Shown: positions 23,690 through 43,654 of the stretch, piece after piece | Layout of the letters: the number at the start of each line of letters is the position of its first letter | Numbering within the stretch: position 1 is the stretch's first letter | Source of the DNA: an uncultured Bacteroidales bacterium | Lineage (GTDB): Bacteria; Bacteroidota; Bacteroidia; Bacteroidales; ML635J-15 | Direction of reading: 5' to 3' | NCBI GenBank assembly: GCA_964511665.1 | Contig: CAZEHA010000001.1 | Span: 24,823 to 88,822, forward strand | DNA: 64,000 nt | Position numbers and translations under genes: made by a program | The notes under the pieces: generated by a model | The model's input: the letters and a program-made list of their open reading frames with translations, nothing else | Databases searched by the model: none | What the model was told of the DNA's origin: nothing

Positions 23690-24400
23690 ATGAATGTATT
23701 GTACACTTTAAAAAAGGCCTGGTATTTTTTGGTTAACCGCCCCATTTACATAAGCGAACCGGGTCTCAACCGCATGCTGCCCAGTATTCCGGGATGGCTC
23801 GACAAAGGCCATATTTACTGTTTCGACTATGCCATTAAAAACCTTCCCGACAACAATCCTATTGTCGAAATTGGAACTTTCGCCGGGCTATCGACCAATG
23901 TAATTCTGTATTTTTTACATAAGCACGGCAAGCCCAACAAACTGATAAGCACCGATTGGTTTTTGCAGGATATTGATGCCGGCGAAACCATTGCAATGCT
24001 AAAAAACCCCAAAGACTTATCGCGGTATATTAAAGAATTATTCGTGAAAAATGTCAGGTTTTTCAGCCCCGAAGCCAATATTGCAGCTTTCGACATGGCA
24101 TCCGACGATTTTTTTAAAGCATGGGCAGAGCAGCGCGAAACGAAAGACTTATTTGGTAACAGCCAACGCATTGGCGGCTCCATATCGTTTGCCTATATCG
24201 ACGGCAATCATGTGTATGAATATGCGCGACGTGATTTCGAAAATGTTGACAAATACCTTGTTACGGGTGGGTTCATTTTGTTCGACGACTCGGCCGGATA
24301 TACCTGCTGGGGTTCAAAAAAAGTGGCACAAGAAGCATTAAAGTCGGGCAAATATCGTTTGGTGAAAAAGAACCCACATTATTTTATTCAAAAGAAATAG
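23690..24400 (+). CDS. Class I SAM-dependent methyltransferase (Methyltransf_24-like)
   Basis: Contains VEIGTFAGLST (motif I) and FAYIDGNH.YEYARRDFE......GGFILFDD, typical of the O-methyltransferase/Methyltransf_24 group. Confidence 0.6.
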   Translation: MNVLYTLKKAWYFLVNRPIYISEPGLNRMLPSIPGWLDKGHIYCFDYAIKNLPDNNPIVEIGTFAGLSTNVILYFLHKHGKPNKLISTDWFLQDIDAGETIAMLKNPKDLSRYIKELFVKNVRFFSPEANIAAFDMASDDFFKAWAEQRETKDLFGNSQRIGGSISFAYIDGNHVYEYARRDFENVDKYLVTGGFILFDDSAGYTCWGSKKVAQEALKSGKYRLVKKNPHYFIQKK

Positions 24401-24401
24401 C

Positions 24402-25259
24402 ATGAACAAACGGCTGTCGAAATGCATCGAAACATTGCAAGGAATAGTTAAACTATTGTTTTTTTCGAGCTGGAAGAAGAACAGGTTTACAGCAAGTGCC
24501 ACTGAGGTTGTAATACTTGGTAACGGACCTTCGTTGGCATCGATGCTCGAAAACAACTCTCATTTTTTATCAGAAAAAGAGCTAATTGCTGTTAATTATT
24601 TTGCACTTAGCGATGTTTTCTTCTCGCTGAAGCCCCGGCATTATGTTCTGATAGACTTTGCATTTTATCATGAACCCTTCGACGACAACGAAACGCTGGC
24701 AAAGCGAAAAACCATGTGGGAAAACATAGCGCGGGCCAATTGGGAGATTCACCTCTACCTACCCCATTCAGCTAAAAAGCATACCCGATGGCAACAGATT
24801 ATTGGCAACAACAAGCATGTTGATGTACACTATATAAATGTAACCGCCATCGAAGGCTACTCTTGCTTCAGGCACTGGTGCTACAAAAAAATGCTGGGGA
24901 TGCCCCGCCCTCACAATGTTATTGTGCCCGCACTCATGATTGCGCTGAAAATGCAATTCAAAAAAATATACCTGTGGGGCGTCGATCACTCATGGCTTTC
25001 GCAAATTAGCGTTGACGACAACAACCGGGCTTTGGTAAACAACCGGCATTTTTACGACACCAACGGTTCGAAACCATCGCGTTTCATTGTAAAAACACAT
25101 GCCTCGGCACCCTTGCACGTGATATTATATACCATGATGACTGCATTCGAAAGCTATTTTATTATTGCAGAATATGCACGAAAATGCCAATCGCTGATAT
25201 TGAATCAAACCCGCGGAAGTATGATCGATGCTTTTGAGCGCGACTATCTTTCTGAATAA
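24402..25259 (+). CDS. MptE-like/DUF115-type protein (putative glycan-modifying transferase)
   Basis: The VVILGNGPSL motif and length resemble DUF115 (Maf/sialyltransferase-like) proteins. It starts 1 nt after the methyltransferase stop. Confidence 0.4.
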   Translation: MNKRLSKCIETLQGIVKLLFFSSWKKNRFTASATEVVILGNGPSLASMLENNSHFLSEKELIAVNYFALSDVFFSLKPRHYVLIDFAFYHEPFDDNETLAKRKTMWENIARANWEIHLYLPHSAKKHTRWQQIIGNNKHVDVHYINVTAIEGYSCFRHWCYKKMLGMPRPHNVIVPALMIALKMQFKKIYLWGVDHSWLSQISVDDNNRALVNNRHFYDTNGSKPSRFIVKTHASAPLHVILYTMMTAFESYFIIAEYARKCQSLILNQTRGSMIDAFERDYLSE

Positions 25260-25406: not shown

Positions 25407-26168
25407 ATGAGAACACATGTTAAAATTCACACCGACTGCAACAACAACAAGAGCCGTTGTTCGTCGTCGAGCCGTAAGAAAGTTACCCTCGGGCTTTTTC
25501 TGGTAGCCGCAGGCATATTGCTTATTCTGGGCCGCAGTGGCCTTATCGAGCCCAAACACATGGAATACATATTCAGCTGGCAATCGCTGCTGGTAGCCTT
25601 AGGAGTACTTTTTCTGATTTCGAACCCCCGTTCGGCGGTTTTCAGCCTAACGCTGATGTTTATAGGCGGCTTTTTTCTGTATTCCGAAATTGTGAACCTT
25701 CCCATAGAAACCCGTAACATTTTCTGGCCGATAATTCTGGTTCTGGTGGGCCTGGTTATGATATTCAAGCGTTTTTCGCACAAAACTCCCAAAAAACCCT
25801 TCGATCATGTAGAGTCGTTTTCCGACGAATATGTCGACAAGAACATAGTATTTGGCGGCTGCAAAACCGTTGTAACATCAAAAAACTTCAGGGGTGGCAG
25901 CATATCGACAGTGTTTGGCGGCTGCGAACTGATTCTTACCGAAGCCGGCCTTGCCGAAGGCGATAATGTGCTGAACATAAACGCAGTGTTTGGCGGCATA
26001 AGTATTGTAGCGCCACGCAGTTGGGATATAGTAATAGAAGTAGATGGCATTATGGGAGGTTTTAAAGACGACCGCAGTTTTGTGAACCCCGACAACATTG
26101 ACCGTAGTCGCAGGCTAATCATAAAAGGGTCGGCAGTGTTTGGTGGCGGCGAAATAAAAAATGTGTAA
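25407..26168 (+). CDS. LiaF-like membrane protein (cell-wall stress module, DUF2154-type C-terminus)
   Basis: Has 4 TM helices, then repeated VFGG motifs (VFGGCELILTEA, NAVFGGISIVAP, SAVFGGGEIKN). Confidence 0.6.
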   Translation: MRTHVKIHTDCNNNKSRCSSSSRKKVTLGLFLVAAGILLILGRSGLIEPKHMEYIFSWQSLLVALGVLFLISNPRSAVFSLTLMFIGGFFLYSEIVNLPIETRNIFWPIILVLVGLVMIFKRFSHKTPKKPFDHVESFSDEYVDKNIVFGGCKTVVTSKNFRGGSISTVFGGCELILTEAGLAEGDNVLNINAVFGGISIVAPRSWDIVIEVDGIMGGFKDDRSFVNPDNIDRSRRLIIKGSAVFGGGEIKNV

Positions 26169-27221
26169 ATGAGTCATCCTTTTTCGAAAAATCGCAGGGT
26201 AATTCTTGCCTATGCCATTTGCTGGCTTCTGGTTTCGGGAGCCCATTTGGCATTGTTGCTCAGCATTGCCCGTGCCGATGTGGCTGTGGCTATCACCGAC
26301 GCGCTGGTGTACAACACCGTGTTTGCCCTTATAGGCATGGCCATATTCTATGCCACGGCTTATACCGGCCTCGACAAACGCTTTGGCGACATTATATTCA
26401 ACCATATTCTGGCTGCCGTTGCTTTTGTTGGCATATGGCTGCTTACGTCGTATCTGCTAAGCGAAATGCTTTTCTCTATTTTCAACATTGCTTCGCCCGA
26501 TAATGCTTCATGGCTCAGGGTGCGCATACCCATTGGGCTGGCTTACTACATAGTGCTTTCGCTGATGTTTTACCTGATTAAAAGCAACGAAACCGGAAAA
26601 GCAGCAAAGCAAGACATTCTGAAAATGGAATCACAGCTTCGCGAAAGTCAGTTGCAGGCTCTTAAATCGCAAATAAACCCACACTTTTTGTTCAACAGCC
26701 TCAACAGTATTTCGTTTTTGGTAAAATCGAATCCCGACAAGGCCCGCGAAATGCTGTCGGTGCTGTCGGAATATTTCCGCTACAGCCTGAAGCAGCAGTC
26801 GAACACGGCCTTACTGGGCGACGAACTGAACCACTGCCGCAAATATCTCGAAATAGAGAAAATACGTTTTGGCAATAAGCTGCTGTGGACCGAAACCATC
26901 GAAAACAACACCGATGCCATTCCGGTTCCGGCCATGATATTGCAACCTATTTACGAAAACGCCGTGAAACATGGTGTTTACGAAAGCGAGATACCCGTAA
27001 GCATCAATACACACATCAGCCTGCACACAGGCTATGCACTTATCGAAATTGAAAACAATTTCGACCCCGAAGCTCCGGTGCGCAAAGGCGAGGGAGTGGG
27101 GTTGAAAAATGCAGGTGAGCGCCTGAAACTCATGTTTGGTGCCGACGACCTGCTCGAAACCTCGATTACCAACAGTGTTTTTACCGTAAAAATTAGCATT
27201 CCAATACCCCGAATAGTATGA
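26169..27221 (+). CDS. Sensor histidine kinase, LytS/YehU family (His_kinase + HATPase)
   Basis: Multi-TM N-terminus. The INPHFLFNSLNSI H-box is followed by ..ENAVKHG.. and ..GVGLKN... The start abuts the previous stop. Confidence 0.8.
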   Translation: MSHPFSKNRRVILAYAICWLLVSGAHLALLLSIARADVAVAITDALVYNTVFALIGMAIFYATAYTGLDKRFGDIIFNHILAAVAFVGIWLLTSYLLSEMLFSIFNIASPDNASWLRVRIPIGLAYYIVLSLMFYLIKSNETGKAAKQDILKMESQLRESQLQALKSQINPHFLFNSLNSISFLVKSNPDKAREMLSVLSEYFRYSLKQQSNTALLGDELNHCRKYLEIEKIRFGNKLLWTETIENNTDAIPVPAMILQPIYENAVKHGVYESEIPVSINTHISLHTGYALIEIENNFDPEAPVRKGEGVGLKNAGERLKLMFGADDLLETSITNSVFTVKISIPIPRIV

Positions 27222-27955
27222 TACGCTGCATTATTATCGACGACGAAGAACCGGCCCGTATGCTTATAGAAGAATATCTTGAAGCACACGGTGATATTGT
27301 GATAGCTGCCCGTTGTGCCAATGGATTCGAAGGCCTGAAAGCCATACACGAGTTGAAACCCGATTTAGTGTTTCTCGACATACAAATGCCCAAGCTTACC
27401 GGATTCGAAATGCTCGAATTGCTCGAACACCACCCGGCCATAGTGTTTACCACCGCCTTCGACACCTATGCCATGAAAGCTTTCGACAACCATGCCATCG
27501 ACTATCTGCTGAAACCGTTTACGCCCGGGCGCTTTGGCGAAGCACTCGAAAAAACCCGAAAAATTTTGTCGGCCAACACGGCAGCCAACAACAACCAATT
27601 GTTTCTGCAAAGCATGAAAGAATCGAAAGAGATGCTTGAACGCATTGTGGTGAAATCGGGTAAAAAAATTAAGGTACTGCCGGTCGATAGTGTGGTTGCA
27701 ATTGAAGCTGCCGACGACTATGTGCTGATACATACCCGCGACGAACAGTTTGTGAAAAGCGACACCATGAATTACTACGAACAGCACTTGCCTGCCAACG
27801 ATTTTATTAGGGTACACCGTTCGTTTCTCGTTGCTGTGTCGTGCATCGAAAGCATGGAAGCCTATACCAAAGAAACCCATGTGCTAAAGATGAGCAACGG
27901 CATGCAAATAAAAACCAGCCGCAGCGGTTCACAAAAACTGCGACAGATGTTGTAA
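27218..27955 (+). CDS. LytTR-family response regulator
   Basis: REC domain (IIIDDE...DLVFLDIQMP) plus a C-terminal LytTR DNA-binding domain (..DDYVLIHT......FIRVHRSF). There is an ATGA overlap with the kinase gene. Confidence 0.85.
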   Translation: MIRCIIIDDEEPARMLIEEYLEAHGDIVIAARCANGFEGLKAIHELKPDLVFLDIQMPKLTGFEMLELLEHHPAIVFTTAFDTYAMKAFDNHAIDYLLKPFTPGRFGEALEKTRKILSANTAANNNQLFLQSMKESKEMLERIVVKSGKKIKVLPVDSVVAIEAADDYVLIHTRDEQFVKSDTMNYYEQHLPANDFIRVHRSFLVAVSCIESMEAYTKETHVLKMSNGMQIKTSRSGSQKLRQML

Positions 27956-27975
27956 TTGAAAATATTGCATTATTC

Positions 27976-28081
27976 AGCCAGCGTGGTGATTCAACAACCG
28001 CAAAACTGAGGACACTGAGGACACTGAGGACACTGAGGCTCTCGAAGTGCCGAAGTGCCGAAGTGTCGAAGTGTCGAAGCG
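27976..28081. repeat. Left composite arm: terminal CAGCCAGCGTGG, then a 9-mer array (ACTGAGGAC x3 + ACTGAGGCT) and an 8-mer array (CGAAGTG-type x5)
   Basis: Read directly from the sequence. 28005-28040 is four 9-mers. 28042-28081 is TCGAAGTG, CCGAAGTG, CCGAAGTG, TCGAAGTG, TCGAAGCG. Confidence 0.9.
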
Positions 28082-28173
28082 ACAAAACAACATAGCGCTG
28101 ATGAAAAGATTTAGCAGCAACTAAATAGTTTTCATTGCTCTTTTCCATCTGGCACCTTATCTCTGTATGCTAT

Positions 28174-28440
28174 TTATAATTCAGGAAGAATATCAGCAAT
28201 TCCATCTATCAATGCTTTTTTCTTTTTTCGACTCCACCCCTGTATTTGTTTCTCACGGATAAATGCTTCATCAATTCGTTGAAATTCTTCAAAATATACT
28301 AATTTCACTGGCAGGTGTTTCTTGGTATAATTTGCTCCCTCACCATTTTGATGTTGTGCTAATCTCATCTCAATATTTTTTGTGCTTCCTGTATAATAAT
28401 TTCCATTTGCACATTCTAAAATATACACAAATCCCTTCAT
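28174..28440 (-). CDS. GIY-YIG nuclease family protein (small UPF0213/YhbQ-like class)
   Basis: 88 aa. Contains GFVYILEC.NG.YYTGST.N...RL.QH and a C-terminal E...K..GWSR.KK pattern. Confidence 0.85.
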   Translation of the reverse strand: MKGFVYILECANGNYYTGSTKNIEMRLAQHQNGEGANYTKKHLPVKLVYFEEFQRIDEAFIREKQIQGWSRKKKKALIDGIADILPEL

Positions 28441-28523
28441 TTTACCGAATATGAATTAACACCATAAAAATAAAAGATTTTATCAACAACAGGTGGCTCT
28501 ATGCATAATTTTCAATCGACGAG

Positions 28524-28628
28524 GGTTCTTCGGACACTGGGGATTCGTAAAAACAATGGTTGCTTCGAGTGCTTCGAGAGCCTCAGCAACCTCAGCAACC
28601 TCAGCAACTTTAGCGTCCACGCTGGCTG
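28524..28628. repeat. Right composite arm (mirror image of the left arm)
   Basis: Contains GCTTCGAG x2 (28562-28579), CCTCAGCAA x3 (28581-28607) and then ..AGCGTCCACGCTGGCTG. One additional plus-oriented unit, GGTTCTTCGGACACTGGGGATTCG, lies at about 28524-28547. Confidence 0.9.
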
Positions 28629-28675
28629 CATAAAAAGCATATTCCAATTCCATATCCCTTTTTTTTGTTTACTTT

Positions 28676-29938
28676 GTGAAAGAATTAAACCATGATGTAG
28701 TGGATAGTTTTGTATTTGTAGTGTGCGGAGCAAAAGCTTTTATTAGCGAATTGAATTTCTCGCTTCGGTTTTTGCGGCACTTCAGTCAACACCGCATTGT
28801 GGTTCTCACCGACAGCCGCCGCAACGAAATTCCCATCGATCACAACGATATCATCGACGTTGAAACCCCACAGCATCTGGCACACCATCAGGCACACCTC
28901 TGGCTCGAAACACGCCTGCCCGAATATATGAACCTGCAAGCCGGCGACCGCTGCTGCTATCTCGACTCGGATGTGGTAGCCATCAACGAAAAGGTAAACC
29001 ACATATTCTCTCACTATCATGCCCCCATCACTGCAGCATACGACCATTGCAGCATCGACTATTTCAGCGTGGGCGTGGTAAATTGCCAATGTCGCAGCGA
29101 ATTCCAAGAGATAGAAGCACAATTTGCCATGATGCTGAACTATTTCCCCAATATTCAACTAAACGAAGCCCACATACAGCAGCAACACGCAATGCTGAAA
29201 TCGGTATTCCGAAAAATGAAATTCAACCCGTTTGCCGATAAATGCAAAGGTATAGGCTACCTAAAAAAACGCTATCTAAAAAAACACAGCGATATAGTGT
29301 TGAACAACCAATTCCGTTTTTCGTTTGCCGACCACTGCTGGCGCAACATGCAAGGCGACATTATCGATTTCGATTACCCCTATTACTACGGCAAACTAAA
29401 GAAAGAGCACGGCATATACATACGCAACGCCAAATGGTTTCACCGCAGCGGCCGCGAACTGGCGCCTGTTACGCCGCATTGCAGCCACCTGCGGCAGTAT
29501 CTGAAAAAAAACTACGCGGTGAGCATTCCCAACAATTGGCAACACCGCAACGGAGGCGTGTTTTTGTTCGGGCACGAATCGAAAGATTTCTTCGCACAAT
29601 GGCACCAATACACCTTGGCCGAAATAGCAAAAGGCTATATTAAACCCTACGACGACCAGGCCACACTGGCCGTGTGCATGTGGCAACAAGGCATCGAAAA
29701 CAGTAATATATTGCCCGAGGACTTCAATTTTATTGCCGACCACGGCAACAAAAGCATTGGGTACTGCAGCACTAGAGGCTATACACGCAATGCTTTTGCC
29801 ACAAGCTGCAAGCCTGCGCTGCTGCATGTGTACAACGAATGGGGAAACCAAAGCTGGGATATCTGGCAATCGGTGTTGGAAACCGGACGAAAAAACGGCA
29901 TATTGCCAACAAACACCAAAAACTACAACAAGCTATGA
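28676..29938 (+). CDS. Uncharacterised DxD-motif protein, probable GT-A-fold (GT8-like) glycosyltransferase; paralog 1
   Basis: Motifs CYLDSDVVAI (DxD), NGGVFLF and DDQATLAV mimic the GT8 order YLDxD / NsGvll / DQD.LN. It is about 40% identical by eye to the next gene. The start is uncertain: GTG at 28676 or GTG at 28700 (VDSFVFVVCG aligns with MKAFVFVVCG of the paralog). Confidence 0.45.
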   Translation: MKELNHDVVDSFVFVVCGAKAFISELNFSLRFLRHFSQHRIVVLTDSRRNEIPIDHNDIIDVETPQHLAHHQAHLWLETRLPEYMNLQAGDRCCYLDSDVVAINEKVNHIFSHYHAPITAAYDHCSIDYFSVGVVNCQCRSEFQEIEAQFAMMLNYFPNIQLNEAHIQQQHAMLKSVFRKMKFNPFADKCKGIGYLKKRYLKKHSDIVLNNQFRFSFADHCWRNMQGDIIDFDYPYYYGKLKKEHGIYIRNAKWFHRSGRELAPVTPHCSHLRQYLKKNYAVSIPNNWQHRNGGVFLFGHESKDFFAQWHQYTLAEIAKGYIKPYDDQATLAVCMWQQGIENSNILPEDFNFIADHGNKSIGYCSTRGYTRNAFATSCKPALLHVYNEWGNQSWDIWQSVLETGRKNGILPTNTKNYNKL

Positions 29939-31146
29939 AAGCATTTGTATTTGTGGTATGCGGAAGCCGCGAGCATGTCGATACGCTGAACTACAGCCTC
30001 AGGTTCATCAGGCACTTCAGCCGCTACCCCATTGTGGTGCTTACCGACCCCAAACGCAACGAAGTTCCCATAGTGCACAACACAATAATTGAAGTAGAAA
30101 CACCCGAACACTTCGACCACCACCAGGCTAGCATATATCTGAAAACCGGAATTCATAAGTTTCTCGACATGGCGCCGGGTAACATGTACTGCTACCTCGA
30201 CAGCGACATAGTAGCCATAAGCCCCGAAATAAACAGCATATTCGACTACTTTGCCGAGCCGATAATTTTTGCGCCCGACCACTGCCTTTTCGACGAATTC
30301 AGTCCCCACGCCATGAACTGCGGATGCCTGGCCGATACCATCAGGCGCAACAATCAATACAAAGAAGTGGATGCATTTTTTGCTCAAGAATTTTTTAAAA
30401 AACCCTGCAACGAAGAAAAAAAACAAGAACTCGACAGTTTGTTTGCTACCATGAACAAGCCGGGCATTACAAACACATTATACCGATTCATCTACGCTTT
30501 CAAACGATATCTGTTGCCTTTTGCATCGTTTCGGTTTGGTAGTTTCGTATTCAGGCGCAACACACGCATGTGGTTTACAGCACAAGGCGAGTATGTGGGT
30601 TTCGATTTCAAATATTATGCCCGCCAGTTGCGCCGCACTACAGGTCTTCATTTCGATGCCGGTACGGCAACATGGTTCAACTCAGCAGGCGAGAACATTA
30701 TGCCACGGGTAGCACAATGCGACCACCTCAGAAAATACTGCCTCGAAAAATACAACTGCAGCATTCCTGCCGATTGGAACCATTGCAACGGAGGCGTGTT
30801 TTTATTCAACCACCGGTCCATCGATTTTCTCGACTACTGGCACCGGCTTACTCTTGAGGAATTTGCCGACCCACGCACAAAAACACGCGACCAGGCTACA
30901 CTGGCCGTAAGCATGTGGAAATTTGGTCTGCAACACACGGCACGCCTAAAAAAAGAGTTTAATTTTATTACCGAATACGACAACACAAACACTGCCTGGC
31001 ATCCCGACAAAGGCTTCACATACAACGGCTTCAACACTGTGTTTACACCCTATTTTTTACACATCTACCACGAGTGGGGCCACAAGGGCTGGAGCATCTG
31101 GGATTATGTGGAGGAGCTGGTGAAGGAGAAACTTATGAAATTGTAA
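29935..31146 (+). CDS. Uncharacterised DxD-motif protein, probable GT-A-fold glycosyltransferase; paralog 2
   Basis: The ATG at 29935 overlaps the TGA of paralog 1 (ATGA). Shared blocks are FVFVVCG, LN.SLRF.RHFS, VVLTD, VETP.H..HHQA, CYLDSD.VAI, NC.C, C.HLR.Y, NGGVFLF, DQATLAV.MW, FNFI and Y.EWG..W.IW. Confidence 0.45.
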   Translation: MKAFVFVVCGSREHVDTLNYSLRFIRHFSRYPIVVLTDPKRNEVPIVHNTIIEVETPEHFDHHQASIYLKTGIHKFLDMAPGNMYCYLDSDIVAISPEINSIFDYFAEPIIFAPDHCLFDEFSPHAMNCGCLADTIRRNNQYKEVDAFFAQEFFKKPCNEEKKQELDSLFATMNKPGITNTLYRFIYAFKRYLLPFASFRFGSFVFRRNTRMWFTAQGEYVGFDFKYYARQLRRTTGLHFDAGTATWFNSAGENIMPRVAQCDHLRKYCLEKYNCSIPADWNHCNGGVFLFNHRSIDFLDYWHRLTLEEFADPRTKTRDQATLAVSMWKFGLQHTARLKKEFNFITEYDNTNTAWHPDKGFTYNGFNTVFTPYFLHIYHEWGHKGWSIWDYVEELVKEKLMKL

Positions 31147-31219: not shown

Positions 31220-32395
31220 TTAGTATGGGGTGCCTGCAATATAGAACTCGATTTTAATTTCAGTTAACAATTTTGTCAAAACTTCTATTCTTTCATTAAC
31301 GGTGTCAATAGGAATTTTATTTTCGATTAAAGCGGAGTCAGAATTCTCTCCTTCATAATATTTAAGTAAAATAACGTGATTAAAATATTTCTGTTTCAGA
31401 ATTCTTTTAATACTGTTAATATCTTCAGTATCCTCGGTCGGAAATCCAATGATGAAATGTGTTTTTAAAAGGAACTTTGCATTAGCATCTCTAAATCTGG
31501 CAATGCATTTTTCAACATCTTCTACATTGTGTTTTCTCTTCATCAGCTTTAAAACTCTATTAGAAGCTGATTGTAGAGGCATCACTATTTCAACAATTGT
31601 TTTATTCTTAATATATTTAAGGAATGTATCTTGGTATTTTATTGCCCACATAGGGTGTAAGTTATCAATAACCCAACAGACCTTCCCAATTTTCAATTGT
31701 TCCTCGATATTATAACAGTAATCCAATAGGGTTTCAAAAGTTTGCCCACAATCAATCCCAAATGCACCTGTATCGTCGGCATTAAAAATGATCATATCAA
31801 ATCCATCTTCCCTCATTTTCTTGTAATTTCTACCTAAGTTCTCTAAAGAATAGCTCTTTACGGGACCTAAAGCTCTTCTCATTGTACAATAACTACAATT
31901 GTTATTACAGCCCTTGCTACTAATTAGAAGTGCCGGCTTCCTTTTAACTCTTTTGAAAATATTTTTTCGATCATATCTTTCAAACTGATTTAAATAGTAA
32001 TTACCGTATTGGTATTCTTTGTTAAATTCTGATGGTAATGGAATTTCGTTGAATTTAATTTTAAAATTTGGGAAAAGTGTATCGATTAAGTTTTCTAAAT
32101 CCTTTGTTGGAATCATTTCAAAACCAAATCTTTCCCTGAGTAAGTTTGGACTGATGCCTGGAGAACATCCAAGCAGTAGAATTCTTTTTCCTTTTCCTAA
32201 AATGGACTCAACAAAAGTTAAGGTTGATGCTTCAGTTTCGTCTACGACAGAACAAGTGAAAACAGAGACTACATTAGCCTCTTGAAGTGACGATTCTTTG
32301 TAACCATTAATAATAAAATAATCTTTTAACCGTTGCGCCTCAATTGCTCTCATCGGGCATCCTAATATTTCAATATAAAACTTTTGACACTCCAT
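31220..32395 (-). CDS. Radical SAM enzyme of the MiaB/RimO methylthiotransferase family, lacking a TRAM domain
   Basis: The N-terminal UPF0004-like domain has three Cys (LGCPMR, FTCSV, LLGCSP). The radical SAM site is GCNNNCSYC (CX3CX2C). The protein is 391 aa and ends right after the core, leaving no room for the ~60-aa TRAM domain. Confidence 0.65.
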   Translation of the reverse strand: MECQKFYIEILGCPMRAIEAQRLKDYFIINGYKESSLQEANVVSVFTCSVVDETEASTLTFVESILGKGKRILLLGCSPGISPNLLRERFGFEMIPTKDLENLIDTLFPNFKIKFNEIPLPSEFNKEYQYGNYYLNQFERYDRKNIFKRVKRKPALLISSKGCNNNCSYCTMRRALGPVKSYSLENLGRNYKKMREDGFDMIIFNADDTGAFGIDCGQTFETLLDYCYNIEEQLKIGKVCWVIDNLHPMWAIKYQDTFLKYIKNKTIVEIVMPLQSASNRVLKLMKRKHNVEDVEKCIARFRDANAKFLLKTHFIIGFPTEDTEDINSIKRILKQKYFNHVILLKYYEGENSDSALIENKIPIDTVNERIEVLTKLLTEIKIEFYIAGTPY

Positions 32396-32397
32396 AT

Positions 32398-33660
32398 CTA
32401 TTTTTTATTTATTTCCCAGGCCATAATTGGGTTTAATGGTCCAGGAAATGCATCTAACTTTGAAAATATCTGATGTTCTCTCATTTTTAAGTTATCTATC
32501 ATAAGAAAAGAAAATGCTGATTTTATATGTAAAGTTTCAAAATTTTCTTCGCAAGAAATAAAAACATCTGCGCTATATTCATTTGTATTGAAGAGAAATT
32601 TAGGAAATTCGACCGACACACTGTATTCACCTGACTCTTTAATATAAACTTGATCGGCGCTTGATTGTAAGGAATTGGTTGAAAGAAATACAAATCCCAT
32701 GTGAGCAAGATTAACACTTATATTAATTTTGAATTTGTCATTAAACTTCTGAAAAATAAAATCTATTTTAAAGTCTTTTTCCAATTCGATTGCACCTTCT
32801 GGAATTTTTCCATCTTGTGTTACCCCTATGCTAATAATTGAAACACCCATAGGAATAAGAGTTTCATTAATTCGTAATATATCCTTTGGGCTTAATTGCT
32901 TTGAATTTCTGACTATTTGGTGGGTTTCAATGCTTTTTAAATACATTGATATTGTTTGATTTATGTTTCCATTTGAAGAAATTTTACCATTTTCAAGATA
33001 AACAACCTTACTACAAAGTTGCATTATATCGTTTAAGTTATGACTTACAATAATTATTGTTTTTTTTGCAGAAAGCAATTCTAATATTTTTTTTGAGCTT
33101 TTTTGTTGAAAGGCACTATCCCCTACATTTAAAGCTTCGTCAAAAAGCATAATATCGGCATCAATATTAGAAACGAGAGAGAATGCCAATCTGATAAACA
33201 TTCCACTGGAGTAGTGTTTTACAGGAGTATCAATAAAATCGCCTATTTCACTAAATTCAACAATATGCTTAAATCGCTTTTGAATATGCTCTTTATTAAA
33301 ACCCAACAAACTTCCACTAAGAAACACATTTTCTCTACCTGTTAGGTCTGGGTGAAATCCCAGTCCGATTTCTAGGACCGATGCAATGCTTCCAAAAATT
33401 TCAACTTTTCCCGCAGTAGGTTTCGTAATTCCACTTAATATTTTCAGCAATGTACTTTTCCCTGCCCCATTAGGACCAATGATTCCCAAAGATTCTCCTT
33501 TTAAAATTTCTAAAGAAATACCTTCCAGCGCCCAAAACTTTTTTTTGTTTTTAATGTGCAGCAAACCAGTTAATGTAGTGACTTTATTAGTATCAACAAT
33601 CATGTATTGTTTTGAAACACCTGAAATCTTTATTGCAATATTTGAGTTTAGATTTTTCAA
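32398..33660 (-). CDS. Polysaccharide/O-antigen ABC exporter ATPase (Wzt/TagH type) with a ~170-aa C-terminal extension
   Basis: Contains WALEGISLEILKGESLGIIGPNGAGKSTLLK, YSSGMFIRLAFS and MLFDEALNVGDSAFQQK, the typical Wzt/KpsT/TagH signature. The C-terminal beta-rich domain is plausibly a Wzt_C-like glycan-binding module. Confidence 0.8.
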   Translation of the reverse strand: MKNLNSNIAIKISGVSKQYMIVDTNKVTTLTGLLHIKNKKKFWALEGISLEILKGESLGIIGPNGAGKSTLLKILSGITKPTAGKVEIFGSIASVLEIGLGFHPDLTGRENVFLSGSLLGFNKEHIQKRFKHIVEFSEIGDFIDTPVKHYSSGMFIRLAFSLVSNIDADIMLFDEALNVGDSAFQQKSSKKILELLSAKKTIIIVSHNLNDIMQLCSKVVYLENGKISSNGNINQTISMYLKSIETHQIVRNSKQLSPKDILRINETLIPMGVSIISIGVTQDGKIPEGAIELEKDFKIDFIFQKFNDKFKINISVNLAHMGFVFLSTNSLQSSADQVYIKESGEYSVSVEFPKFLFNTNEYSADVFISCEENFETLHIKSAFSFLMIDNLKMREHQIFSKLDAFPGPLNPIMAWEINKK

Positions 33661-34535
33661 ATTAAGTCAGCAATTTTATGTTCAATTTTCTTGAAGTAAA
33701 CAATCCCACTAATAAACAAAATTAATACAGGAATAAAACCAAGTAAATAACGAATATTGGGAACTGCCGAATTTGTAATTGACCATCTCAAACATTCTAA
33801 AACACCTGCCATTGGATTAAAATAAAGGAAAAAATTATATTCCTCAGGAATCATTGTTCCAGGGTAAAAAACAGGAGTAACAAACATACCAAAACCTATT
33901 ATATAGGGGATTATTTGAAAAAAGTCTCGATATCTTATACTGAGCGCGCTGACCCAAAATGTAATTGACAAACCAGTAACAAGTAACATAACAACAATTA
34001 AAGGAAGCATTAAAATATTCACCGTAACAGGAATTTGGTAAAATATCATTAAAACAATTATAATACTAAACCACACCATCAATTCAAACAAACTAACCAA
34101 TGCCTTAGACATGGGCAAAGCAATCTTTGGAAATGCTAGTTTTCTTATCAGATGTTGAGCATTTAATAGAGCCATACCTCCAAAACCTGTGAGATAACTA
34201 AAATTATACCATGCCATTAGGCCAATGCTACAAAAAATGATGTACGGTACTTCTCCAGTAGTAATATGCAGTAAATGACCAAAAAACAGGGTGAAAACAA
34301 TTATACTAACAAAAGCCTGCACATAACTCAGCAAGGGTCCTAGCAAAGTTTGAGCATATCGGCTCTTGAGTTCAATACGAGCAAAAAAGACAATTATCCT
34401 AAAATCGGATACCAAGTTCCTAATATAACACGTAAAAGACACTGGGGTGCTGTCATAAATAATATGATTGTTTTTTTCTTTCATTCTTTCAATCAAGAAA
34501 TGTAAAAATAACATTTTTTTGCGTTCATTTACCAA
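33657..34535 (-). CDS. ABC-2 type polysaccharide exporter permease (Wzm)
   Basis: Six TM helices, with ELKSRYAQTLLGPLLSYVQ typical of the Wzm/TagG N-terminus. There is a 4-nt overlap with wzt. The true start may be an internal Met (MLFLHF or MKEKNN). Confidence 0.75.
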   Translation of the reverse strand: MVNERKKMLFLHFLIERMKEKNNHIIYDSTPVSFTCYIRNLVSDFRIIVFFARIELKSRYAQTLLGPLLSYVQAFVSIIVFTLFFGHLLHITTGEVPYIIFCSIGLMAWYNFSYLTGFGGMALLNAQHLIRKLAFPKIALPMSKALVSLFELMVWFSIIIVLMIFYQIPVTVNILMLPLIVVMLLVTGLSITFWVSALSIRYRDFFQIIPYIIGFGMFVTPVFYPGTMIPEEYNFFLYFNPMAGVLECLRWSITNSAVPNIRYLLGFIPVLILFISGIVYFKKIEHKIADLI

Positions 34536-39497: not shown

Positions 39498-40076
39498 ATG
39501 AATAAGGAAGAATACTATGCACACCCCACTGCGGTAATCGACGAAAACTGCAGCATTGGCAACGGCACCAAAATATGGCATTTTTCGCATATTATGAGCC
39601 ATTGTGTTATTGGCCAAAACTGCAATATTGGTCAAAACGTAGTGGTATCGCCCGATGTAGTGCTCGGCAACAACGTAAAAGTGCAGAACAACGTATCGAT
39701 ATACACCGGCGTGGTTTGCGAAGACGATGTTTTTCTGGGCCCTTCGATGGTATTTACCAATGTGGTGAACCCACGCAGTGCGGTGAACCGCAGAGGGCAG
39801 TATGCAAAGACACTGGTAAAGCAGGGCGCCTCGATAGGAGCCAATGCTACCATAGTGTGTGGCCACGATATTGGCAAGTTTGCTTTTATAGGTGCCGGTG
39901 CCGTGGTAACCAAACATGTGCCCGATTATGCGCTGGTGGTGGGCAACCCTGCCCGTCAAGCAGGCTGGATGAGCGAATACGGTCACAAACTGACATTCGA
40001 CGATAGCGGTGTGGCAGTGTGCCCCGAAAGCGGAGAAAAGTATCAACTGACCCGGGGAGAGGTCAAAAAAATATAA
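39498..40076 (+). CDS. Left-handed beta-helix N-acetyltransferase, WbpD/WlbB-like (UDP-2-acetamido-3-amino-2,3-dideoxy-glucuronate N-acetyltransferase)
   Basis: 192 aa with hexapeptide repeats. The IWHFSHI...VFTNV.NPR....R......T.V..GASIGANATI..G...G..A.IGAGAVVT..VP.YALVVGNPA pattern is typical of WbpD/WlbB. Confidence 0.75.
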   Translation: MNKEEYYAHPTAVIDENCSIGNGTKIWHFSHIMSHCVIGQNCNIGQNVVVSPDVVLGNNVKVQNNVSIYTGVVCEDDVFLGPSMVFTNVVNPRSAVNRRGQYAKTLVKQGASIGANATIVCGHDIGKFAFIGAGAVVTKHVPDYALVVGNPARQAGWMSEYGHKLTFDDSGVAVCPESGEKYQLTRGEVKKI

Positions 40077-40081
40077 GTATA

Positions 40082-41044
40082 ATGAACGACACCAAAAATT
40101 TTGCCTTGGTAGGTGTAGCCGGCTACATTGCCCCCCGGCACGTGAAAGCCATTAAAGAAACCGGAAACCGTTTGGTTGCCTGTCTCGACAATTTCGATTG
40201 TGTGGGGTATCTCGACGCACACTTTCCCGAAGCCGACTTCTTTTACGAGTTCGAACGTTTCGAGCGCCACATCGATAAACTGCGCCGCAGTAATCAAAAA
40301 ATTGACTATGTGAGCATTTGCTCGCCCAATTACCTGCACGACTCTCATATCCGCTTTGCGCTGCGAAACCGCGCCCATGCCATCTGCGAAAAACCACTGG
40401 TGCTGAATCCGTGGAATGTAAATGCTCTGGTTGAAATGGAAAAAGAAACCGGTTGCAACATCTACAATATTTTGCAACTCCGACTGCACCCAGCGATAAT
40501 TGCACTAAAACAAAAAATCGACAGCGACTTCACCGACCGCATCTACGATATCGACCTGGCATACATTACCAGCCGTGGTAAATGGTACGATTACAGCTGG
40601 AAGGGCAATCCCGAAAAATCGGGAGGGGTGGCTACCAACATCGGAGTTCACTTTTTCGATATGTTACTCTGGATTTTTGGCGATATTGTTGAAAGCGTGG
40701 TTCACATCAGCGAAAAACATAAAGCGGCCGGTTTTCTACAACTAAAGCGAGCGCGGGTGCGTTGGTTCCTCAGCATCGACTACAACGACATTCCCGAAGC
40801 AATAAAAGCAAAGGGACAACGGACCTATAGGTCAATTACTATCGGAAGCGAAGAAATTGAATTTAGCGAAGGTTTTACCGATTTGCATACATTAAGTTAT
40901 CGTGAAATATTAAGCGGTAACGGATTTCGCGTGGCCGAAGCCATGCCCTGTATCGACGCTGCTTACAGCATCAGAAACGCAGCGCCCATCGGCTTAATCG
41001 GAAACTACCATCCCTTATGCCATGAAAAAAATCATGTTTTATGA
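40082..41044 (+). CDS. Gfo/Idh/MocA oxidoreductase, WbpB/WlbA-like (UDP-GlcNAcA 3-dehydrogenase)
   Basis: Blocks FALVGVAGYIAPRH, ICSPNYLH, YNILQLRLHPAIIALK, ITSRGKWY..SWKG.PEKSGGVATNIGVHFFDML and ARVRWFLS...TYRSIT..EE.EFSEGFTDLHT match WbpB as I remember it. Confidence 0.75.
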   Translation: MNDTKNFALVGVAGYIAPRHVKAIKETGNRLVACLDNFDCVGYLDAHFPEADFFYEFERFERHIDKLRRSNQKIDYVSICSPNYLHDSHIRFALRNRAHAICEKPLVLNPWNVNALVEMEKETGCNIYNILQLRLHPAIIALKQKIDSDFTDRIYDIDLAYITSRGKWYDYSWKGNPEKSGGVATNIGVHFFDMLLWIFGDIVESVVHISEKHKAAGFLQLKRARVRWFLSIDYNDIPEAIKAKGQRTYRSITIGSEEIEFSEGFTDLHTLSYREILSGNGFRVAEAMPCIDAAYSIRNAAPIGLIGNYHPLCHEKNHVL

Positions 41045-41058
41045 ACAAAATTATTTAT

Positions 41059-41066
41059 TAGATTTG
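41059..41066 (+). promoter_or_regulatory. -7 box TAGATTTG
   Basis: Matches TAnnTTTG, 40 nt upstream of the ATG at 41106. Confidence 0.3.
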
Positions 41067-41105
41067 CGCAATAATCTCATTTGTTAATTGTTTAACAGCA
41101 ACTTT

Positions 41106-42395
41106 ATGTATCAGGAAATCATCAACAAACAAAAAAAGATCTCGGTTATTGGGCTGGGATATGTAGGGCTACCCATTGCTCTTGAATTTGCAAAACATGT
41201 AAAAGTGGTTGGCTTCGACATTAAGCCCGACCGCGTTGAAATGATGAAAAACCGCATTGACCCCAGCAACGAACTGCCACCCGAGGCTTTCGACAACTGC
41301 GATATCGAGTTCACTGCCAATGCCGAAGACCTGAAACAGTGTCATTTTCACATAGTTGCCGTTCCCACTCCTATCGACGAACACAATCTCCCCGATCTTA
41401 CACCGGTAATAAAAGCCAGCGAAACCGTGGGTAAAATTCTGAAAAAGGGCGATTACGTGGTTTATGAATCAACCGTGTATCCGGGATGCACCGAAGAAGA
41501 CTGTGTACCGGTTCTCGAACAAATGAGCGGACTAAAATACATCGACGATTTCAAAGTGGGATATTCACCCGAGCGTATCAATCCGGGCGACAAAGAACAC
41601 ACTCTAACCACCATTAAAAAAGTGAGCTCGGGCTGCGATGCCGAATCGGCCGAAGAAATAGCCCTGGTTTACGAAATTGTAATTACCGCCGGCGTACACC
41701 GTGCTTCGAGTATAAAAGTAGCCGAAGCAGCCAAGATTATCGAAAACACCCAACGCGATGTGAATATTGCCTTGATGAACGAGCTTTCGATGATATTCAA
41801 TATTATGGGCATTAATACCTACGAAGTGCTGGAAGCTGCCGGAACCAAGTGGAACTTTCTGAAGTTTGTACCGGGGCTGGTAGGTGGGCATTGCATTGGC
41901 GTTGACCCCTACTACCTGCTACACAAAGCCAAAGAACTCGGGTACCATGCACGCATGATTAATTCGGGTCGTGGCATCAACGATGGCATGGGAGCTTATG
42001 TTGCCGAGCAAACTGTGAAAAAAATTATTGCTCAGGGTAAAGAAATTACCAGTAGCAGAGTTCTGATTATGGGTATTACCTTTAAAGAAGATGTTACCGA
42101 TATCAGAAACTCTCGTGTTGTAGATATTTTGAACGAACTCAGCAAATACAACGTGAAATACGATGTTGTCGACTGCCATGCCAACATGCATGAGGTGGAA
42201 GAAGAATACGGCCTAAAAATGATTACACAACCCGAAGGAAAATACGACGCCGTGATTGTTGCCGTGAACCATCGGCGCTACAAAGAACTCGACGAAAGCT
42301 ATTTTGCCGGCATTCTGAAAGATCGCGGTTTGATTATGGACATTAAAGGGATATACAGAGGTAAAATCAAAAACACAGCCTACTGGACCCTCTAA
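41106..42395 (+). CDS. UDP-N-acetyl-hexosamine 6-dehydrogenase (TviB/WbpA/WbpO family nucleotide-sugar dehydrogenase)
   Basis: Contains GLGYVGLP, VPTPI, LTP.IKASETVG..L.KGD.VVYESTVYPGCTEE.CVP, GYSPERINPGDK, KVAEAAK.IENTQRD.NIAL.NE and LVGGHCIGVDPYYL. Confidence 0.85.
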   Translation: MYQEIINKQKKISVIGLGYVGLPIALEFAKHVKVVGFDIKPDRVEMMKNRIDPSNELPPEAFDNCDIEFTANAEDLKQCHFHIVAVPTPIDEHNLPDLTPVIKASETVGKILKKGDYVVYESTVYPGCTEEDCVPVLEQMSGLKYIDDFKVGYSPERINPGDKEHTLTTIKKVSSGCDAESAEEIALVYEIVITAGVHRASSIKVAEAAKIIENTQRDVNIALMNELSMIFNIMGINTYEVLEAAGTKWNFLKFVPGLVGGHCIGVDPYYLLHKAKELGYHARMINSGRGINDGMGAYVAEQTVKKIIAQGKEITSSRVLIMGITFKEDVTDIRNSRVVDILNELSKYNVKYDVVDCHANMHEVEEEYGLKMITQPEGKYDAVIVAVNHRRYKELDESYFAGILKDRGLIMDIKGIYRGKIKNTAYWTL

Positions 42396-42425
42396 ACAAA
42401 CAAAAATTCATAAAGCACACACAGA

Positions 42426-42456
42426 AGCATTCCATTGGAGTGCTTTTGTTTTTTAT
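42426..42456 (+). terminator. Rho-independent terminator
   Basis: AGCATTCC (42426-42433), loop ATT, GGAGTGCT (42437-42444, one G:U pair), then TTTTGTTTTTT. Confidence 0.7.
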
Positions 42457-42552
42457 TACCACCCGTGCTTCAGACTTTTTTAACCATTTCTTTCAGCATA
42501 CACAATAAACATGTATTTTTAGGCATTTAACAATTGTATTAAACCTTTTTCG

Positions 42553-43584
42553 ATGACGAAGACAAAAATTCTGGTAACAGGTGGTACGGGATATATCGGA
42601 TCGCATACGGTAGTTACACTGCTGCAATCGGGCTACGATGTGGTAATTATCGATAACCTGAGTAATTCCGATACAGATGTTCTTGATGGCATAGCTCAAA
42701 TTTCGGGAACAAAACCTGTTTTTTTCGAAGGAGATATCTGCAAAAAAGATGATGTTCGTATGGTTTTCGCCGCGCATCGCGATATTGAGGCCATCATTCA
42801 CTTTGCCGCACTGAAAGCAGTAGGCGAATCGGTTGAATTCCCGCTGAAATACTACTACAACAATGTGGGCGGTTTAATTAGCCTTCTCGATGAAAGCGTT
42901 AACAATAATGTGAAAGCATTTGTGTTTTCGTCGAGTTGCACTGTGTATGGCCAACCCGATAGGTTGCCGGTTGACGAAACAGCGGCTATTCGCCCCGAAT
43001 CGCCTTATGGCAACACCAAATGGGTGAACGAAGAAATACTCAAACACACCGTTGCCTCCGGTATTGGAATGAAAGCACTTTCGCTTAGGTATTTCAACCC
43101 TATTGGAGCTCACCCTTCGGCGCTTATCGGAGAATTGCCATTGGGAGTTCCCAACAATCTGCTGCCTTTTATTACCCAAACGGCCTGTGGAGTGCGCGAT
43201 AAGCTAACGGTGTTTGGAAGCAACTACAACACACCCGACGGCACCTGCATTCGCGATTACATCGATGTGAACGATTTGGCCGAAGCCCATGTTAAGGCTC
43301 TCGAATATCTTTTAAAACCCGAATCGGAGCCGTATGATGTGGTGAATTTAGGAACAGGGAAAGGAGTATCGGTACTCGAAATTGTTTCGGCTTTCGAAAA
43401 TTCGACCGGCGAAAAACTGAATTATACTATTGGCAATCGCCGACCCGGAGATGTAGAACAAGTTTGGGCAAGCACTTCGAAAGCCGAAGCCATGCTACAC
43501 TGGAAAGCAACACGCAGCCTGAAAGACACCGTGCTTTCGGCCTGGAATTGGGAAAAGCATTATAGAAGTAAAAGTGCAACATGA
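42553..43584 (+). CDS. galE: UDP-glucose 4-epimerase
   Basis: Contains VTGGTGYIGSH, SSSCTVYG, the YxxxK region YGNTKW, RYFNPIGAH and DGTCIRDYI.V.DLA.AH. Confidence 0.85.
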   Translation: MTKTKILVTGGTGYIGSHTVVTLLQSGYDVVIIDNLSNSDTDVLDGIAQISGTKPVFFEGDICKKDDVRMVFAAHRDIEAIIHFAALKAVGESVEFPLKYYYNNVGGLISLLDESVNNNVKAFVFSSSCTVYGQPDRLPVDETAAIRPESPYGNTKWVNEEILKHTVASGIGMKALSLRYFNPIGAHPSALIGELPLGVPNNLLPFITQTACGVRDKLTVFGSNYNTPDGTCIRDYIDVNDLAEAHVKALEYLLKPESEPYDVVNLGTGKGVSVLEIVSAFENSTGEKLNYTIGNRRPGDVEQVWASTSKAEAMLHWKATRSLKDTVLSAWNWEKHYRSKSAT

Positions 43585-43616
43585 GAAACTCATAATCTAC
43601 AACATTCGTGAGTTTC
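43585..43616 (+). other. Hairpin immediately after the galE stop
   Basis: GAAACTCA (43585-43592) pairs with TGAGTTTC (43609-43616). There is no U-tract, so it is possibly an RNA processing or attenuation element rather than a terminator. Confidence 0.3.
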
Positions 43617-43654
43617 GGCAGAAAAATGTATTTTAGCCAAAATTTATACCTACA

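Follow-up and report, generated by a model that had tools for sequence, protein, structure and literature searches.

Comparison with Described Glycosyltransferases

The α-glycosyltransferases of lipopolysaccharide (LPS) in the CAZy glycosyltransferase (GT) family GT8 (PF01501), such as Escherichia coli WaaJ and WaaO and Neisseria LgtC, are soluble enzymes with the GT-A fold. GT8 members are retaining enzymes. The motifs of the LPS group are arranged in the order [Y]LDxD, N-x-G, DQ, and a C-terminal His. The same order is found in the products of two tandem genes, A and B, in a 64,000-nucleotide stretch of DNA from an uncultured Bacteroidales bacterium (contig CAZEHA010000001.1; hereafter the window, to which all coordinates refer), and the family of these proteins gives partial, collinear matches to the Pfam GT8 profile. 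We consider that A and B are probably glycosyltransferases of a GT8 branch with a stapled insert, which act sequentially on a lipid-linked glycoconjugate exported by a Wzm/Wzt transporter.

The motifs of WaaJ and WaaO are YLDAD (129), FNSG (179–182), DQD (215–220), and HYxGxxKPW (264), and those of the window proteins are YLDSD (87–91), NGGVF (284/285), DQ (319–320), and LH[IV]Y..WG (H376). The spacings from N to DQ (34 against 36 residues in WaaJ/WaaO) and from DQ to His (57 against 49) are similar, whereas the distance from DxD to N is 196 residues in the window proteins and 50 in WaaJ/WaaO. This means that some 146 extra residues separate the DxD motif from NGG, and they form a domain of their own. 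Unlike the LPS transferases, the window proteins carry a putative Cys3His site, and their family has HIYHxWG...W..W at the C-terminus in place of HYxGxxKPW. Unlike routine GT8 members, they fall under the PF01501 cutoff.

Glycogenin-1, XXYLT1, the xylosyltransferase domain of LARGE1, and the catalytic domain of UGGT (GT24) represent the only kinds of structure among the listed matches of a model of B, with identities of 9–19% and TM-scores of 0.3–0.49. These enzymes work in eukaryotic compartments, where their substrates are proteins or glycoproteins. No structure among them matched the insert when it was searched alone, and neither the inserted domain nor the metal site is present in the GT8/GT24 structures matched.

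Multidomain glycosyltransferases of Wzm/Wzt-dependent O-antigen and capsule pathways offer a third comparison: Wzm and Wzt share a cluster with the family in several genomes, and the family includes fusions of 900–1370 residues with GT4, GT32-like, and GT8 domains. In contrast, the window proteins are single-domain, and the family clusters differ from described O-antigen loci in containing several twitch-domain radical S-adenosylmethionine (SAM) enzymes, UbiA, and a fatty-acid module. The enzyme class is one expected in such loci; the insert architecture and the radical-SAM-rich cluster are uncharacterised.

Gene Pair and Family

The pair is defined by three features.

28700..29938, + strand: gene A, A-type paralog, 412 residues; the open reading frame (ORF) opens with GTG at 28676, and the likely start is GTG at 28700
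29935..31146, + strand: gene B, main-type paralog, 403 residues; AlphaFold model with a predicted local distance difference test score (pLDDT) of 94.4; more than 1024 homologs
29935..29938, + strand: ATGA overlap of the B start codon with the A stop codon (sequence ...aagctATGAaagca...)

The ORF listing holds two + strand ORFs, 28676–29938 and 29839–31146. Translation of B from ATG at 29935, inside the second ORF, yields MKAFVFVVCG, and translation of A from the in-frame GTG at 28700 yields MDSFVFVVCG; both agree with the family N-terminus, MNxFVFVVCG. Public gene calls contain the exact 412-residue A and 403-residue B, nameless, on contigs of up to 177 kb, and the A ortholog in a close relative, locus L088, likewise has 412 residues. 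Because of the N-terminal match and the exact 412-residue gene calls, the start of A is more likely to be GTG 28700 than the GTG at 28676 that opens the ORF.

A and B share 40% identity over 396 residues (E = 1e-106), a similarity that, judged from this alignment, is far beyond chance. The identity is 52% in residues 1–128, 22% in residues 129–261, and 46% in residues 262–395. The maximum Kyte-Doolittle mean over 19 residues is 1.53 in A and 0.83 in B, too weak for a transmembrane helix or signal peptide, and the hydropathy is thus consistent with a cytoplasmic location. An earlier reading of the same DNA from its letters alone (the sequence-only reading) had described a pair of cytoplasmic paralogs of about 400 residues joined by an ATGA overlap, and this pair proved to be real, with the overlap in place. 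The shared blocks that it listed (FVFVVCG, LNxSLRF, VVLTD, VETPxH..HHQA, CYLDSD, NGGVFLF, DQATLAV, FNFI, YxEWG..W.IW, NCxC, and CxHLR) are present in both proteins. Its description of a divergent middle third is correct, as the identities by thirds demonstrate; its extent of gene A stands as an ORF, with the likely start moved to 28700. The GC content of both genes is 47–48%. A scan for sigma-70 promoters and terminators gave no excess over shuffled controls, the sigma-70 model being ill-suited to Bacteroidota promoters.

More than 1024 relatives were returned by a word-indexed search. In the listed top 120, each entry with a name is a "hypothetical protein", and most of the named ones are from Bacteroidales metagenome-assembled genomes (MAGs). 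An exhaustive hidden Markov model search of 1.84 billion cluster representatives gave 336 clusters at 50% identity, and 391 of the 185,579 species genomes scanned are carriers; the 80 carrier loci listed are almost all from Bacteroidota MAGs. One MAG with the gene (L057) is assigned to Chitinophaga pinensis. The family is therefore small, tight, and phylogenetically restricted. No description of it or of its gene cluster was found in the literature.

Catalytic Motifs and Fold

The following motifs correspond to those of GT8.

28964..28972, + strand: DxD motif (D89-S-D91) of A, identified by motif conservation
30199..30207, + strand: DxD motif (D89-S-D91) of B
30787..30801, + strand: NGGVF of B, counterpart of GT8 FNxG[VF] (29549–29563 in A)
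30886..30894, + strand: R-D-Q of B, counterpart of GT8 DQD, from conservation and comparison with WaaJ/WaaO
29651–29659, + strand: D-D-Q of A, with charge reversal at position 318 relative to R-D-Q of B
31057..31068, + strand: L-H-I-Y of B with the invariant H376, counterpart of GT8 HYxGxxKPW (29822–29833 in A)

Across 269 family sequences, D89, D91, D115, N285, G286, G287, D319, Q320, and H376 are essentially invariant, and H376 is presumed to be the third metal ligand. The sequence-only reading had named loss of the DxD aspartates in most relatives as a sign against its assignment; among the 260 relatives whose sequence covers these positions, D89 is present in all and D91 in 259. Gene A retains every invariant catalytic residue (D89, D91, D115, N284-G-G, D319-Q320, and H376).

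The AlphaFold2 model of B, built from an alignment of 42 sequences, had the pLDDT given above and a predicted TM-score (pTM) of 0.85. In a Foldseek search of the PDB with this model, all 50 of the matches listed were the UGGT catalytic domain of GT24 or GT8 enzymes, the latter being glycogenin, XXYLT1, and LARGE1. The probabilities were 0.96–1.0 and the E-values 1e-5 to 5e-4.

Neither A nor B matched the Pfam GT8 profile (gathering threshold 24.3 bits), and the NCBIfam search of both gave no match. Residues 274–324 of B matched Pfam GT34 (PF05637) at 14.5 bits (E = 0.031), below the threshold of 23 bits; this match falls in the NGG-DQ region common to the same Pfam clan. When 42 family members were searched, five matched GT8 and five matched GT34. 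Only P0115 passed the GT8 cutoff (24.6 versus 24.3 bits). Its residues 11–118 align with GT8 profile positions 32–133, and residues 281–348 of P0110 align with positions 156–222. This means that the partial matches are collinear, with the insert between the two halves.

The absence of a GT8 match for A and B, and its rarity among their relatives, argue that the family is a divergent branch of GT8 and not a routine member: fold and motifs place it in GT8, and it fails the Pfam threshold. The GT-A/GT8-like identity proposed in the sequence-only reading is thus borne out by the fold matches, which include no confident fold other than GT24/GT8, by the collinear partial hits, and by the conserved aspartates. 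That reading had also held that the motif order mimics GT8. The order is as described, but a divergent branch fits better than mimicry.

Inserted Domain and Cys3His Site

30307..30717, + strand: inserted domain of B, approximately residues 125–261; three helices followed by a β-meander, with length and sequence variable in the family
30316..30327, + strand: N-C-G-C (C129, C131) of B, first half of the putative Cys3His site (29081–29092 in A)
30718..30726, + strand: C-D-H (C262, H264) of B, second half of the putative metal site (29480–29488 in A)

The insert, which separates the DxD strand from the NGG loop, comprises about 135–146 residues. Distant relatives often align to the family profile in two stretches, approximately 2–130 and 258–395, which indicates that the middle region varies in both sequence and length. 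A model of the insert only (B residues 118–272, 27-sequence alignment; pLDDT 90) shows three long helices and, after them, a four-strand β-meander, a helix, and a hairpin. A Foldseek search of the PDB with this model gave no match (best E = 1.5). By this test, the modelled insert is a domain without a solved structural relative.

C129-x-C131 and C262-x-H264 are located exactly at the two junctions between the core and the insert. In the 269 sequences, this quartet is CCCH in 231 and CCCC in four, and all four residues are replaced in about 20; the rest are fragments. The sequences lacking the quartet keep every catalytic residue. The joint retention, joint loss, and His-to-Cys interchange fit a structural metal site of tetrahedral geometry, and the extra Cys/His site suspected in the sequence-only reading gains support from this pattern. 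We infer that a putative Cys3His site, most likely occupied by zinc, staples the base of the insert. This site could also be an Fe-S or redox-sensing centre.

Genomic Context of the Family and Alternative Products

ORFs were called and clustered in 86 loci, and recurrent neighbours were named by use of Pfam and NCBIfam. Their counts are as follows.

46/86 loci: AsnB-like glutamine amidotransferase, passing the asparagine synthase cutoff
44/86 loci: twitch-domain radical-SAM enzyme (NF033640), 83 copies
31/86 loci: unnamed protein of ~490 residues with a lipoprotein-like N-terminus and no Pfam match
28/86 loci: GT2
22/86 loci: β-ketoacyl synthase (KAS)
20/86 loci: FabZ-like protein
19/86 loci: UbiA
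17/86 loci: short-chain dehydrogenase/reductase (SDR) sugar epimerase
16/86 loci: Wzt-like ATPase
8/86 loci: Wzm

Also found repeatedly are GT4, further GT8-like, and GT32-like enzymes, methyltransferases, a phosphopantetheinyl transferase, PhyH dioxygenases, and a sulfotransferase-like protein. At least 19 kb of sequence was available for 33 species loci, and 32 of these contain at least one glycan-type partner (AsnB-like in 22, twitch radical-SAM in 20, GT2 in 15, KAS in 14, and UbiA in 13). In addition, the family domain is fused to GT4, GT32-like, second GT8-like, AsnB, and UbiA domains, the last with or without a methyltransferase. Taken as a whole, these recurrent partners and fusions place the family in complex glycoconjugate biosynthesis at the cytoplasmic membrane. 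Wzm/Wzt are found in the family clusters of loci L001, L007, L010, L035, L039, L063, and L088. The link to ABC-2 export proposed in the sequence-only reading therefore recurs elsewhere, including L088, a relative with 91% DNA identity whose pair stands first in a co-directional operon with Wzm and Wzt.

It should be mentioned that L001, L003, L007, L035, L039, L091, and other Bacteroidota loci carry two to six twitch/SPASM radical-SAM genes each. These radical-SAM-rich loci also contain the unnamed ~490-residue protein, AsnB-like, GT2, UbiA, and KAS/FabZ/phosphopantetheinyl transferase genes. In some homolog loci, a fusion of ~1170 residues with ribulose-phosphate 3-epimerase, aldolase, and kinase-like domains adjoins a nucleoside triphosphate (NTP) transferase.

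The same neighbours raise the main rival explanation, that the pair glycosylates a small lipid natural product and not a polysaccharide, with a scaffold made by the fatty-acid module and UbiA and export by a DrrAB-type ABC-2 transporter. The frequencies of KAS and FabZ given above are in keeping with this, as are a short 78-residue ORF, possibly an acyl carrier protein, and a 4'-phosphopantetheinyl transferase that recur in the clusters. UbiA is not only a neighbour: P0194 and P0243 carry it in direct fusion with the family domain. Tailoring roles are typical of the PhyH dioxygenases, the methyltransferases, and the numerous radical-SAM enzymes. However, the 900–1370-residue fusions resemble the polymerising enzymes of ABC-dependent polysaccharide pathways, and the clusters are dominated by GT2s and sugar-nucleotide genes (DegT, PglD-like, SDR epimerases, and NTP transferases). 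Moreover, the L001 Wzt shows a weak match to Wzt_C, and no lipid-module genes are located near the pair in the window. Taken together, a small lipid product seems unlikely, although it is the alternative that deserves most attention.

Glycosylation of a protein or peptide, perhaps a radical-SAM-modified peptide of the kind made on ribosomes and then post-translationally modified (RiPP), is much less likely still. The top fold matches (glycogenin, XXYLT1, and UGGT) are protein-directed GT8/GT24 enzymes, homologs of the SPASM/twitch radical-SAM and AsnB neighbours also occur in RiPP pathways, and there are sub-threshold matches of the AsnB-like protein to a lasso cyclase model and of the radical-SAM enzyme to several peptide-maturase models. 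The AsnB-like neighbour, however, has an intact glutamine amidotransferase domain and scores 480.7 bits against asparagine synthase (glutamine-hydrolysing; cutoff 267.1) and 248 against the lasso cyclase model (cutoff 525), whereas the radical-SAM neighbour belongs to the generic twitch family NF033640 and to no peptide-maturase equivalog. The RiPP reading is ranked low because both neighbours fail the peptide-maturase models. Furthermore, the exporter is of the ABC-2 type, and the neighbourhood tables, with no search aimed at them, contained no precursor-peptide gene or peptidase-containing transporter.

Duplication and the A-type Clade

A neighbour-joining tree built from 206 family proteins places gene A within a clade of 16 members, to which the upstream gene in the L002 and L022 pairs also belongs. 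The same 4-nucleotide overlap joins the pairs in loci L001, L002, and L088. The duplication is therefore older than the species sampled. Two copies are present in eight of the 86 loci and a single copy in 78; some of the two-copy loci look like independent duplications. In L046 and L063, the A-type gene is the single copy.

The A-type clade is distinguished by substitutions that adjoin the catalytic motifs. Residue 70 is Glu in all of its members and Lys in 99% of the others (HQAHLxLETxLP versus HQASIxLKTGLH), R318 is replaced by Asp (IxxDDQ versus TKTRDQ), and LHVYxxWG replaces LHIYHxWG, with loss of H379. Together with the catalytic residues that A retains, these features would fit two enzymes that are both active but differ in their specificity for the donor or acceptor. 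From K70E, R318D, and the 22%-identical insert, A and B may differ in the residue added or in the acceptor. The two acceptor specificities suggested in the sequence-only reading thus remain plausible, given the separate clade and the charge reversals next to the catalytic motifs.

Complexes of GT8 proteins with an inactive subunit are known, such as GAUT7 for GAUT1 in plants. That one paralog is catalytic and the other its non-catalytic partner in an obligate heterodimer would suit the translational coupling, which suggests approximately 1:1 co-production, and the loss of the near-invariant H379 and R318 in the A-type, but it is the least probable of the explanations weighed here, since A keeps all of its catalytic residues and the single-copy loci, including those with the A-type alone, imply that the family functions without a partner.

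Locus in the Window and in L088

Downstream of the pair, the following block is encoded on the opposite strand.

31220..32395, − strand: MiaB/RimO-family radical-SAM gene without a TRAM domain, convergent to the pair; GC 32%
32398..33660, − strand: Wzt-like ABC ATPase with a C-terminal extension; GC 31%
33657..34535, − strand: Wzm-like ABC-2 permease; GC 32%

The next gene, for an alkaline phosphatase, has a GC content of 50%, and this block is a compositionally foreign cassette. The window Wzm is 47% identical to a representative of the cluster that includes the L001 Wzm. In L001 and L063, the order Wzm-Wzt-...-MiaB/RimO-like radical-SAM occurs in synteny with the family, and the pair and these three genes are all that the window shares with the family clusters. 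The product of 31220–32395 has UPF0004 and radical-SAM domains and scores 183 bits against TIGR00089 (cutoff 251); a methylthiotransferase-like enzyme in a glycan-export module would be unusual.

L088 shares with the window the pair and the upstream genes for a methyltransferase, a LiaF-like protein, a histidine kinase, and a LytTR regulator. The homology stops at 31120, 26 nucleotides before the B stop codon. Beyond this point, L088 has a co-directional operon encoding the ~490-residue protein, Wzm, Wzt, AsnB-like, DegT, a PglD-like acetyltransferase, an SDR, a FabA-like protein, and KAS. The 3' end of B is a recombination junction. The pair thus forms the conserved head of the locus, strains having exchanged what lies downstream of it, and the comparison shows that the exporter module next door in the window is a recent acquisition. 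Since both downstream versions carry an ABC-2 exporter, a functional export link is supported. In this region of L088 (11126–12855), a 30% GC gene for the ~490-residue protein lies between B and a 61-bp copy of the B 3' end, which is 97% identical and leaves a remnant ORF of 46 residues.

Upstream of the pair, a GIY-YIG gene (88 residues, 28174–28440, − strand, GC 32%) is contained in a 625-bp segment, 27987–28611. The segment is bounded by inverted repeats, 27970–27986 versus 28617–28633 (94% complementary) and 28015–28047 versus 28572–28604, within which are 9-nucleotide tandem units, ACTGAGGAC repeated 3.8 times and CCTCAGCAA repeated 3.1 times. The equivalent slot in L088 (window 27955–28633) holds a 174-residue Y1 (IS200/RAYT-like) transposase. 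From this comparison, the slot looks like a hairpin-flanked site for varied small mobile cargo. A mobile-element or defence role for the pair, considered because of the adjacent GIY-YIG gene, was rejected, as the cassette is an independent insertion that is swapped for the transposase in L088.

On the + strand at 23690–25259, a Methyltransf_24 gene is followed by a gene for a 285-residue protein with a weak MptE-like match (DUF115, Maf-type). Just downstream of these two genes is a trio encoding a LiaF-like protein, a LytS-type histidine kinase, and a LytTR regulator (25407–27955), after which the GIY-YIG slot and the pair follow immediately. L088 has the same arrangement. The pair might be regulated by envelope stress. 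In addition, a + strand run of nucleotide-sugar genes is located at 39498–44710, 8–13 kb downstream of the pair. It encodes a hexapeptide acetyltransferase, a GFO/IDH/MocA oxidoreductase, and a uridine diphosphate (UDP)-sugar dehydrogenase, which resemble WbpD, WbpB, and WbpA, respectively, together with an epimerase and a GDP-mannose 4,6-dehydratase-like protein. These genes could supply donors, including uronic acids.

Proposed Function

Several observations weigh against the proposal that A and B are GT8-branch enzymes of an exported glycoconjugate. Neither protein reaches any Pfam or NCBIfam threshold, sequence and profile searches of the PDB with the family returned nothing usable, and the hhalign comparison of the family profile with single WaaJ/WaaO sequences was not significant, the DxD strand alone being aligned (E = 0.011). 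The TM-scores of the B model to GT8 structures (0.3–0.49) are modest, which is attributable to the insert. No family member has been characterised so far. In the window, the block at 31220–34535 is convergent to the pair and has a GC content of 31–32%, against 47–48% for the pair, and no AsnB, GT2, or UbiA partner is located near the pair; the twitch radical-SAM and KAS partners, which with these three are the commonest in the family, are like them absent from the window. No initiating polyprenyl-phosphate glycosyl-phosphate transferase and no ligase or acceptor system was seen within ~10 kb of the pair, where no systematic search was made. The sequence-only reading had spoken of a polymer exported next door. 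The Wzm/Wzt synteny elsewhere favours this claim, but in the window itself it is circumstantial, because the exporter block converges on the pair and is foreign in composition.

Starting from the paralogy, fold, motif conservation, all-or-none Cys/His quartet, synteny, and domain fusions found here, we infer a scheme in which A and B would be soluble, cytoplasmic, divalent-metal-dependent GT-A enzymes using nucleotide sugars. D89-x-D91 and H376 would hold the Mn2+ or Mg2+ ion that binds the diphosphate of the donor, and N285-G-G together with D319-Q320 would form the lining of the sugar pocket. The insert might shape the acceptor site or supply acceptor recognition, and the Cys3His site (C129, C131, C262, and H264) would hold it in place. 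A and B would add two different residues, or serve two acceptors, consecutively. Two consecutive retaining transfers from nucleotide sugars to a lipid-linked acceptor would thus take place on the cytoplasmic side of the inner membrane; a Wzm/Wzt-type ABC-2 transporter would then export the product. GT8 includes uronic-acid transferases. On this basis, and from the AsnB-like fusions and adjacency, it might be guessed that the donor is a uronic acid, which is then amidated.

A bolder proposal, which seems possible rather than probable, is that the family provides the hallmark transferase of a glycoconjugate pathway that is so far undescribed and is conserved among mostly uncultured Bacteroidota. 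Such a pathway might combine tailoring by twitch radical-SAM enzymes, AsnB-like amidation, possible acylation (KAS/FabZ/phosphopantetheinyl transferase) and prenyl linkage (UbiA), and ABC-2 export. The Cys3His-stapled insert might then be a new acceptor-recognition domain, or contain an Fe-S/redox site.

The present results give a first functional handle on a family of more than 1000 members, every named one of which is listed as a "hypothetical protein". They define which of its residues are catalytic, as well as a structural site that probably binds metal and an inserted domain that is new, and tie the family to a recurrent radical-SAM-rich cluster carried by Bacteroidota of gut, rumen, sediment, and digester samples. 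For enzymology, GT8 would gain an architecture with a metal-stapled insertion. If the product of the cluster is a conserved surface glycoconjugate, the family would be relevant to envelope biology, phage/host recognition, and the annotation of Bacteroidota metagenomes.

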